Made by a program: the position numbers and the translations under genes | From: a phage | NCBI GenBank assembly: GCA_021537435.1 | Contig: GCA_021537435.1_3050.1 | Direction: 5' to 3' (one strand) | Length of the DNA stretch: 64,000 nt | Shown: positions 10,557-11,525 of the stretch, piece by piece | Numbering within the stretch: position 1 is the first letter of the stretch | Layout: every line of letters begins with the position of its first letter | The notes under the pieces: model-generated | Told to the model about the DNA's origin: nothing | Seen by the model: only the letters and a program-made list of their open reading frames with translations | Database searches by the model: none

Positions 10557-11105
10557 ACCCAAGAAAACATCTACTGATCGTTGATACCACTGCAAATCCA
10601 AATAGCCATTACGCACATTAAACTGATAGAACATATGACAAGGCGGTAATGCCATATATTTAAGTTCAGCTGGATTCCACGCAGAAACAATTTGTCGCCT
10701 ATCATTCGGCAGTTTTTTAATACGATCAATAACTTCTATAATTTGGTCTACACCACCAAAATCACGCCATTGTTTTCCATAAATTGGACCAAGTTCACCG
10801 CTATGGTATCCTAAATCTTTTGCTTGATTTTCGTAATTTTCATCCCAGACTGTTTTGCCTTGAATTAATGAATCATGCTGAATTAATCGTAAATCATTGA
10901 CATTCGTGCTTCCTGATAAAAACCATATTAACTCAGCAATGCAAGCTTTCCAAGCGAGCTTTTTAGTTGTTACTGCAGGAAAACCTTTGGTTAAATCCCA
11001 ACGCAATTTAGTACCGAACAAAGCAATTGTTCCTGTGCCCGTTCGGTCATCGGTTTCATAGCCGTTTTCAAGAATGTCTTTAATTAAATCTTGGTATTGT
11101 TTCAT
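10557..11105 (-). CDS. td: thymidylate synthase, exon 1
   Basis: MKQYQDLIKDILENGYETDDRTGTGT...PPCHMFYQF... TS active-site Cys region. Confidence 0.9.
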
Positions 11106-11108
11106 TTA
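11100..11108 (-). repeat. 9-bp direct repeat TAAATGAAA (minus-strand sense), td-proximal copy
   Basis: contains the td ATG; identical copy at 11517-11525. Confidence 0.6.
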
Positions 11109-11150
11109 GTACCTTATATAAATTATAATACATTTTATGAAGCTAAATAA

Positions 11151-11498
11151 TCAATACGGTTTAGCATCAAATTTTCTCTCAATTTCAGGCGTGAAATATA
11201 ATTCTTTACCGCGTTTGGAAAAGCGACCAATAATATGATAATTATTCTCATCAAACGTGATATTGCCGATATCCATAGCTTTCAACCAAATATCGATATT
11301 TCTATCCAACTTTATGTCAAAATTCCAATACGGAGAACTATTACCGAAAATACTGCAAGCGGATTCAGTAAAACAACTACTATAAATCTTGTCTTTAGGA
11401 ACTACTAATTGATAGACGCCTTTAATAAACTGAGGACCCTGCCATTTTGGTTGTTTCGCGTCTTTTTCTAATAGAATAGGGTAATAATTAAAATTCAT
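11151..11498 (-). CDS. hypothetical protein encoded by an insertion at the frd/td junction (about 115 aa; alternative GTG start at 11510)
   Basis: ORF MNFNYYPILLEKDAKQPKWQGPQF... fills a 410-bp spacer where T4 frd and td overlap; no motif recognised. Confidence 0.5.
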   Translation of the reverse strand: MNFNYYPILLEKDAKQPKWQGPQFIKGVYQLVVPKDKIYSSCFTESACSIFGNSSPYWNFDIKLDRNIDIWLKAMDIGNITFDENNYHIIGRFSKRGKELYFTPEIERKFDAKPY

Positions 11499-11516
11499 AT
11501 TTTCCGCCACGTGTTA

Positions 11517-11525
11517 TTTCATTTA
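11517..11525 (-). repeat. 9-bp direct repeat TAAATGAAA, frd-proximal copy
   Basis: contains the frd stop TGA; flanks the inserted ORF with the copy at 11100-11108. Confidence 0.6.

Follow-up and report, generated by a model that had tools for sequence, protein, structure and literature searches.

We analyzed the junction between the genes for dihydrofolate reductase (frd) and thymidylate synthase (td) in a 64,000-nucleotide (nt) stretch of phage DNA, contig GCA_021537435.1_3050.1 of GenBank assembly GCA_021537435.1, which we call the window and whose coordinates are used here unless a locus number is given. Compared with phage T4, the window contains 417 additional bp at this junction, the breakpoint being ambiguous within a 9-mer, and the extra DNA carries a 115-codon open reading frame (ORF), here termed X, which lies on the minus strand together with frd and td. 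We interpret the 417-bp segment as allele B of an frd-td gene slot that is polymorphic in T4-like phages, and propose that it was gained by ancient recombination and later lost from T4; we judge this account somewhat likelier to be right than wrong. The locus is a new, well-resolved example of the known plasticity of T-even phages and not a new kind of system.

The frd-td slot and its alleles

The 3′ end of frd in the window reads GTA TAT AAA TGA, with the stop codon at 11521-11519, and the encoded Frd, 99.5% identical in amino acids (aa) to T4 Frd, terminates in the VYK* end that is also found in Dhakavirus, Mosigvirus, and Gaprivervirus. The product of td exon 1 is likewise 99.5% identical to T4 Td. 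From the frd stop to the td ATG is a distance of 413 nt, in which a 20-nt spacer (11518-11499) leads to the ATG of X (11498-11496), the encoded protein begins MNFNYYPILLEKDAKQPKWQGPQF..., and X ends with a TGA at 11153-11151. An exact copy of the 9-mer TAAATGAAA stands at each end of the segment, with 417 nt from start to start (Table 1), and as far as the left copy the window is identical to the T4 junction. In several T4 records this junction is single copy (...GTATATAAATGAAACAATACC), with frd and td overlapping by ATGA (M12742, AF158101), whereas the window holds the junction sequence twice and its td is not coupled to frd. A preliminary description of this DNA, made from the letters alone, had reported the frd stop, the td ATG, the 115-codon ORF, and TAAATGAAA at both ends, and all of these statements hold; the single-copy junction of T4 also supports a precise insertion or deletion (indel) with junction sequence on either side.

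Shuffling the AT-rich 521 bp of this region gave a mean of 1.8 pairs of 9-mer direct repeats, with at least one pair in 72% of shuffles, and a second, unrelated 9-mer pair also occurs in the same 521 bp. The 9-bp repeat is meaningful because, and only because, its copies coincide with the indel boundaries. Beyond the 9-mer, the two copies remain similar but not identical, matching at 13 of 15 nt (11511-11525 versus 11094-11108). We considered this longer match as a sign of four duplicated td codons and rejected it, as the four matches among the six extra positions are not significant and phage F2 lacks them.

The preliminary description had also regarded the ORF as unrecognized and its presence at this junction as unusual, and database comparison supports neither view. 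A megablast search with the region found 519 phage records, the whole query being covered in 355, and tblastn with X matched 363 records at 90 to 100% identity, including T2 (100%), T6, RB14, and RB51, or 363 of ≈519 Tequatrovirus records. Conservation of the ORF here in most T-even phages was what the preliminary description had named as the finding that would overturn its reading, and that is what the records show. The RB32ORF229c-type proteins of T2, T6, RB14, RB32, RB51, and hundreds of Tequatrovirus genomes, which share 93 to 100% of their aa with X and are encoded in the same place, are products of this very gene, which belongs to PHROG 1928. Overall, the tblastn search matched 589 records, at one place each, and this place was always beside frd among the matches listed. 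The best record match to the window over 8 kb is 96.9%.

A synthetic T4-like junction query separated three alleles in Tequatrovirus. Allele A, the empty T4-type junction, occurs in ≈27 records, or ≈5%, as counted from single-piece matches to an 84-nt query (split matches had been joined); these include RB55, RB59, vB_EcoM_112, G28, F1, FN, FL12, HY03, and T4 itself, which accounts for more than half. Allele B, with the additional 417 bp and X, is that of the window, T2, and T6 and accounts for 363 records. In allele C, found in ≈135 records (≈26%; for example, Sf21), a 68-aa ORF, Z, takes the place of X. Approximately 95% of sequenced Tequatroviruses hold a gene between frd and td, and the ATGA overlap of T4 is atypical of its own genus. 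A variant that we term allele B′ is present in F2 (locus L021, 894-1862) and Shf125875 (L022, 826-1794), in which frd encodes 205 aa, its extended tail overlaps the ATG of X, and the spacer between X and td is 13 nt. Two additional A's join frd to a 12-codon tail in this allele. Shf125875 is classified as a Mosigvirus yet carries Tequatrovirus-type frd and X, an intergeneric mosaic.

Z lies at 1739-1945 of both L003 (Sf21) and L004, at 2148-2354 of L009, and at 3670-3879 of L018. It belongs to PHROG 9550, is ATGA-coupled to frd, and overlaps the td ATG by one base. The protein is 79 to 81% identical to Z of a Klebsiella phage and of a metagenomic phage, has homologues at 43% identity in Phapecoctavirus (phAPEC8-like), outside the T4 family, and is labeled a flagellar biosynthesis protein in some records.

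The same slot is occupied well beyond Tequatrovirus. Homologues of X with 28 to 46% identity lie directly 3′ of frd in ZX14 (Kanagawavirus), PM2 (Mosugukvirus), KP17 (Jiaodavirus), Clarke_MM3, Melville (Gelderlandvirus), CF1 (Moonvirus), and Kc304 (Winklervirus), and homologues occupy this slot in at least eight other genera of Tevenvirinae. In most non-coliphage genera, X is followed by a tandem paralogue, Y (113-124 aa, same PHROG), which none of the Tequatrovirus records has; the X/Y family is always encoded between frd and td, in at least nine genera, and frequently as two genes in tandem. The order frd-X-Y-Z-td is found in Clarke_MM3 and in L018, a metagenomic contig, and frd-X-Y-td in L019, also metagenomic. 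Start/stop overlaps of the ATGA type or similar link most of the slot genes, as at frd/X, Y/Z, and Z/td in L018. Occupancy varies: phiR1-RT (Tegunavirus) has only Y, followed by a 160-nt noncoding gap before td, Jiaodavirus is without Y, and Roth41 has neither gene. In IME08 (Dhakavirus), APCEc01 (Mosigvirus), and VR20 (Gaprivervirus), the VYK* end of frd overlaps td by ATGA as in T4, and X is absent. Y carries an insertion of ≈20 residues past the Q-x-x-W motif (L006, L007, L009-L012, L018, and L019).

Polarity of the indel

Within Tequatrovirus, X appears to be old and its absence from T4 derived. Nucleotide identity between the window and T2 is 96.3% in X and 94.5% in frd; between the window and F2 it is 87.6% and 88.0%, respectively, with a synonymous divergence (dS) of ≈0.8. 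X has co-diverged with frd and is therefore older than the diversification of Tequatrovirus. The frd gene of T4 differs from that of the window at 11 of 582 sites and from that of the empty-site phage G28 at 25, it nests among those of X-bearing phages, and over the 42 nt on either side of its junction T4 is 100% identical to phages with X, teqdroes among them. These sequence relationships suggest that the T4-type junction in Tequatrovirus is probably a precise secondary loss across the 9-bp repeat, possibly a repeated one. Import of the empty site from the sister genera was considered and does not fit, their flanks being 72 to 81% identical. The T4 overlap is probably a scar-free re-creation of an older junction.

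At the deeper level, X has a history different from that of its flanks. X of the window is 63 to 66% identical to X of L018 and L019, whereas Frd is only 48.7% identical; the other 43 pairs all show the reverse, X trailing Frd in conservation by 2 to 30 points. In neighbor-joining trees with 200 bootstraps, X of Tequatrovirus groups with X of L018/L019 (195/200), and this group is nested with ZX14 (194/200). The Frd tree instead joins L018/L019 with ZX14 and Clarke (200/200) and keeps the four T-even genera together (197/200), and the Td tree joins L018 with ZX14 (194/200). Because the splits in the X tree are incompatible with those in the Frd and Td trees, X has had a history of its own.

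A possible trace of the event is found in the 26 nt directly 5′ of the X coding sequence, which start inside the left repeat. In an ungapped alignment to the frd end of L019, with the register set by the X ATG, the window reads AAT GAA ATA ACA CGT GGC GGA AAA TA and L019 reads ATT GAA ACC GTA TAT GGT GAA AAA CG, giving 15 identities in 26 positions (shuffle p = 0.003) and a codon-for-codon alignment with the L019 Frd terminus, ...IETVYGEKR. Relative to the resident frd, this stretch lies in another reading frame in the window and in the same frame in allele B′, where F2 and Shf125875 read VYK-NEIATGGKYEF*; the donor-type counterpart is IETVYGEKREF*. In our reading, the 26 nt are what is left, in degenerate form, of a donor-type frd 3′ end, a second end behind the complete T-even one. 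At the other side, the 14 nt that precede td match the 3′ end of Y of L019 at 9 of 14 positions in F2 (p = 0.004) and at 7 of 14 in the window (p = 0.07). The empty sister genera, the conflict of the X tree with those of Frd and Td, and the apparent frd relic within the left repeat together make it probable that, at the deep level, the event was a gain into a frd/td junction of the ATGA type.

The following history would account for these features. The coliphage T-even ancestor would have had a frd gene ending in ...VYK* and overlapping td by ATGA, and an ancestor of Tequatrovirus would have exchanged DNA with a Kanagawavirus-like T4-type phage by recombination at the latter's homologous operon, frd-X-Y-td. 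The left crossover would have been illegitimate, at a TGAAA(C) microhomology between recipient td codons 1 to 3 and the donor I-E-T codons near the end of frd, and the right crossover would have fallen at or inside td. Such an exchange would leave the first td codons on both sides of the insert as a direct repeat and the donor frd-tail relic just inside the left copy. Afterward, Y would have been lost, a 2-nt change in an A-run would have uncoupled the frd tail and restored VYK*, and the 32-nt promoter-like piece would have arisen 5′ of td. In T4, the 9-bp repeat would permit precise excision, the likeliest source of its ATGA junction. More generally, ATGA start/stop overlaps may serve as microhomologies for the gain and loss of cassettes X, Y, and Z, with reading frames and translational coupling kept. 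The locus would then be a worked case of cassette exchange in which start/stop overlap motifs of 5 to 9 nt are able to act as recombination microhomologies.

In T4-type phages, ORF cassettes have been shown to leave and re-enter the genome between short flanking repeats, via mini-circles, a reversible process described as modular shuffling mediated by early promoter/stem-loop elements, or PeSLs (Arbiol, Comeau, Krisch et al. 2010; PMC2839356). The X locus resembles these in having a single-ORF cassette that is present or absent in close relatives and a repeated flanking motif. PeSLs, however, are long composites of an early promoter and a stem-loop, whereas the repeat here is a start/stop coupling junction of 9 bp (13/15 when extended); moreover, the X locus has a promoter-like site on one side only, in the X-td spacer, and no terminator-like hairpin in 10900-12500.

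Several points weigh against a gain followed by loss in T4. A 9-mer direct repeat is expected by chance in this sequence, the closest sampled donor X is only 63 to 66% identical, and the crossover points had to be placed by comparison with diverged relatives. The two relic alignments span just 26 and 14 nt, and the neighbor-joining trees were built on short proteins (124-222 columns) in a group in which mosaicism is rampant, X of Clarke also conflicting with its Frd. Only the Td tree and the sister genera make it unlikely that frd moved, and not X. Finally, slot genes have been lost recurrently (Y from Jiaodavirus, X from Tegunavirus, both from Roth41), which permits independent losses in the sister genera. 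Such losses could be the whole story: frd-X(-Y-Z)-td would be ancestral and vertically inherited, T4 and Dhaka-, Mosig-, and Gaprivervirus would each have deleted the cassette between pre-existing short repeats, and alleles B and C would be different partial deletions of X-Y-Z. We consider this unlikely but give it real weight. It fits the X homologues in the same slot of at least eight genera, the full X-Y-Z arrays, and the differential losses just named; the Y-3′-like relic 5′ of td suits an internal deletion of Y, repeats ease recurrent identical deletions, and a 9-mer is unremarkable by chance. Vertical descent does not, however, predict a second, degenerate frd end after a complete VYK end, and the X tree conflicts with the Frd and Td trees at 194 to 200 of 200 bootstraps. 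X also exceeds Frd in conservation, by 14 to 17 points, for pairs of Tequatrovirus with L018/L019 only; at least three independent complete losses would be needed, all with the same junction; and the absence of Y from every Tequatrovirus argues against it as well.

In the preliminary description, the repeat was the footprint of an insertion and X possibly accessory cargo such as an anti-defense gene. The insertion stands in our reading as an ancient recombinational gain from the slot of a related phage, and its interpretation as the target-site duplication of a mobile element does not. A recent autonomous or mobilized insertion, whether transposon-like, similar to a miniature inverted-repeat transposable element, or endonuclease-driven, is favored by the exact 9-bp direct repeat that bounds a precise indel relative to T4, by a product of no recognizable function, and by the I-TevI gene and mobile intron ≈550 bp away. 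We nevertheless regard it as very improbable given the dS of ≈0.8 between Tequatrovirus copies of X that co-diverged with frd, the single copy per genome, always beside frd among the matches listed, and the homology that the sequence bordering the repeats on their inner side shows to the tail of frd and the end of Y in a related operon. No transposase was found and no terminal inverted repeats other than an off-register, AT-rich 18-nt pair with 78% complementarity (11115-11132 and 11512-11529), one arm of which overlaps the left direct repeat while the other lies 7 nt inside, in the promoter-like spacer, and which we judged to be compositional. X had no PADLOC or Pfam match, neither library covering anti-defense proteins. 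Some records of BASEL phages (WilhelmHis, FriedrichMiescher, and KarlGJung) label X a putative homing endonuclease, and a free-standing, possibly degenerate enzyme of this kind would share with the seg, mob, and I-TevI homing genes a patchy presence among close relatives, a position between conserved genes, and a homing site nearby. This seems to us the least credible of the explanations. In agreement with the preliminary description, which saw no GIY-YIG or HNH motif, X matched no GIY-YIG, HNH, LAGLIDADG, His-Cys, PD-(D/E)xK, or other family in Pfam (0 families at E up to 10) or NCBIfam (0), and its structural model shows a small β barrel and no nuclease fold. Unlike the homing genes, X keeps to one slot across genera, is under purifying selection, co-diverges with frd, and forms a stable syntenic paralogue pair in other genera. 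To our knowledge, at 115 aa X is also shorter than the known Seg, Mob, or Tev enzymes.

The X/Y protein family

Among seven Tequatrovirus-type copies of X, the ratio of nonsynonymous to synonymous divergence (dN/dS) is 0 to 0.05; between the window and T2, for instance, the count is 13 synonymous changes against 0 nonsynonymous ones. This pattern marks X as a functional coding sequence, one that is kept under strong purifying selection yet is dispensable. The phrog_1928 profile matches residues 4 to 111 of X with E = 8.4e-36 and matches the paralogue Y as well. Across 14 X and Y sequences from eight lineages, Q16, W19, G27, G91, F93, K95, and G97 are invariant; the family motifs, namely an N-terminal Q-x-x-W, G-x-Y, and a C-terminal G-R-F-x-K-x-G hairpin, are present in X, and the same conserved core recurs across 29 sequences.

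Profile searches with X, Y, and Z found no match in Pfam, NCBIfam, or PADLOC, and PHROGs gave only families of unknown function. A sequence-profile search of the PDB returned nothing under E = 0.3. Against 1.84 billion representative sequences, the X profile had only 51 matches, all to small proteins except for four long ones (SprB, CarboxypepD_reg, and Ig repeat proteins), which we rejected as spurious because a single β segment was matched. A word-indexed homologue search recovered few X orthologues, and literature searches on this ORF by name, on the junction of frd with td, and on the record for T2 found nothing relevant. The label glucose-1-phosphate adenylyltransferase, which X bears in some records, is unsupported, as is that of homing endonuclease.

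An AlphaFold model of X from a 29-sequence alignment has a predicted local distance difference test score (pLDDT) of 80 and a predicted template modeling score (pTM) of 0.75 and contains several β strands and one helix, arranged as a small β barrel whose structural neighbors are of the oligonucleotide/oligosaccharide-binding (OB) type. The model weakly suggests a 13-kDa, mostly β, OB-like protein; its likeness to the OB-fold nucleic acid-binding domains of RPA, SSB, Teb1, Stn1-Ten1, and S1 is weak and is that of a predicted model. Our best guess is that X is a small binding protein, with either nucleic acid or a protein as its partner, and with low confidence we suggest that this OB-like protein is tied to the folate/thymidylate (dTMP) module. 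A bolder proposal, which we think rather improbable, is that X/Y serves the folate/dTMP enzymes of the phage as a dedicated partner, acting as an OB-like adaptor that tethers dihydrofolate reductase and thymidylate synthase into a complex synthesizing deoxynucleoside triphosphates or to nucleic acid, or as a counter to host defenses that target nucleotide pools, that T4 lost X on laboratory-type hosts, and, separately, that ATGA coupling junctions act in phage operons generally as docking sites where cassettes are exchanged without a scar. As a strongly constrained, frd-linked family, X/Y (PHROG 1928) is a candidate for experiment.

Expression signals and neighboring features

In place of the coupling to frd, td of allele B is preceded by an AAGG Shine-Dalgarno-like sequence and a promoter-like element. 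The MotA box has the consensus (a/t)(a/t)(a/t)TGCTT(t/c)A and lies ≈12 nt upstream of TAnnnT. With six of the seven core positions of this consensus matched, TTTAGCTTCA, 12 nt, and TAATTT form a candidate MotA-dependent middle promoter, located in the 32 nt of allele B that allele B′ lacks. A relaxed MotA pattern matched six times in the window, five of them on the minus strand, against 1.8 expected; the other MotA-box-like matches have their 5′ ends at 52344, 40718, 19398, and 16259 on the minus strand and at 48007 on the plus strand, and the one at 40718 has the AGCTT variant core seen in the element 5′ of td. The td-proximal spacer also contains TATAAT at 11127-11122, and the stretch 11154-11125 resembles a sigma-70 promoter (TTGATT-18-TATTAT). 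X is predicted to be expressed within the early/middle nucleotide-precursor operon. Table 1 gives the layout of the locus.

Table 1. Features of the frd-td region in window coordinates.
Feature	Position	Strand	Remarks
frd (dihydrofolate reductase)	11519..12100	-	193 aa, ending ...TESVYK, then TGA; from ORF list
Left TAAATGAAA copy	11517..11525	-	last frd codon, TGA stop, and vestigial td-like start (ATG AAA, then TAA)
Putative degenerate relic of donor-type frd 3′ end	11498..11523	-	26 nt; last base is the A of the X ATG
ORF X	11151..11498	-	115 aa plus stop; PHROG 1928, RB32ORF229c; conserved small protein
X-td spacer	11106..11150	-	45 nt; ≈32 nt missing from allele B′ (F2, Shf125875)
Promoter-like element directly 5′ of td	11120..11147	-	MotA-box-like TTTAGCTTCA (11147-11138), 12 nt, TAATTT
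Right TAAATGAAA copy	11100..11108	-	functional td start (ATG 11105-11103) with upstream TAA
td exon 1	10557..11105	-	183 codons
td group I intron	10556-9544		
I-TevI	10425-9688		
td exon 2	9543-9229		

Upstream of frd, an ORF of 81 aa (12100-12345, minus strand) shares one base with the frd start (TAATG). Another ORF, of ≈119 aa and similar to PST gp235, lies 5′ of the 81-aa ORF in Sf21 and T6 and is absent from G28 and PM136, resembling another presence/absence slot of the same operon.

On the other side, td exon 1 (homologues in L021-L025), which adjoins the I-TevI homing site, is much more mosaic than frd among Tequatroviruses. Relative to the window, UFV-AREG1 is 84% identical in td and 95% in frd, F2 is 79% identical in td and 88% in frd, and teqdroes differs from T4 by 93 mismatches in td and 13 in frd. 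The td intron ORF of G28 (L005 2418-2585) encodes 55 aa annotated as a homing endonuclease and is apparently a truncated I-TevI, and phiR1-RT carries a free-standing I-TevI-like gene (L016 2860-3588) on the opposite strand just past its intron-less td.

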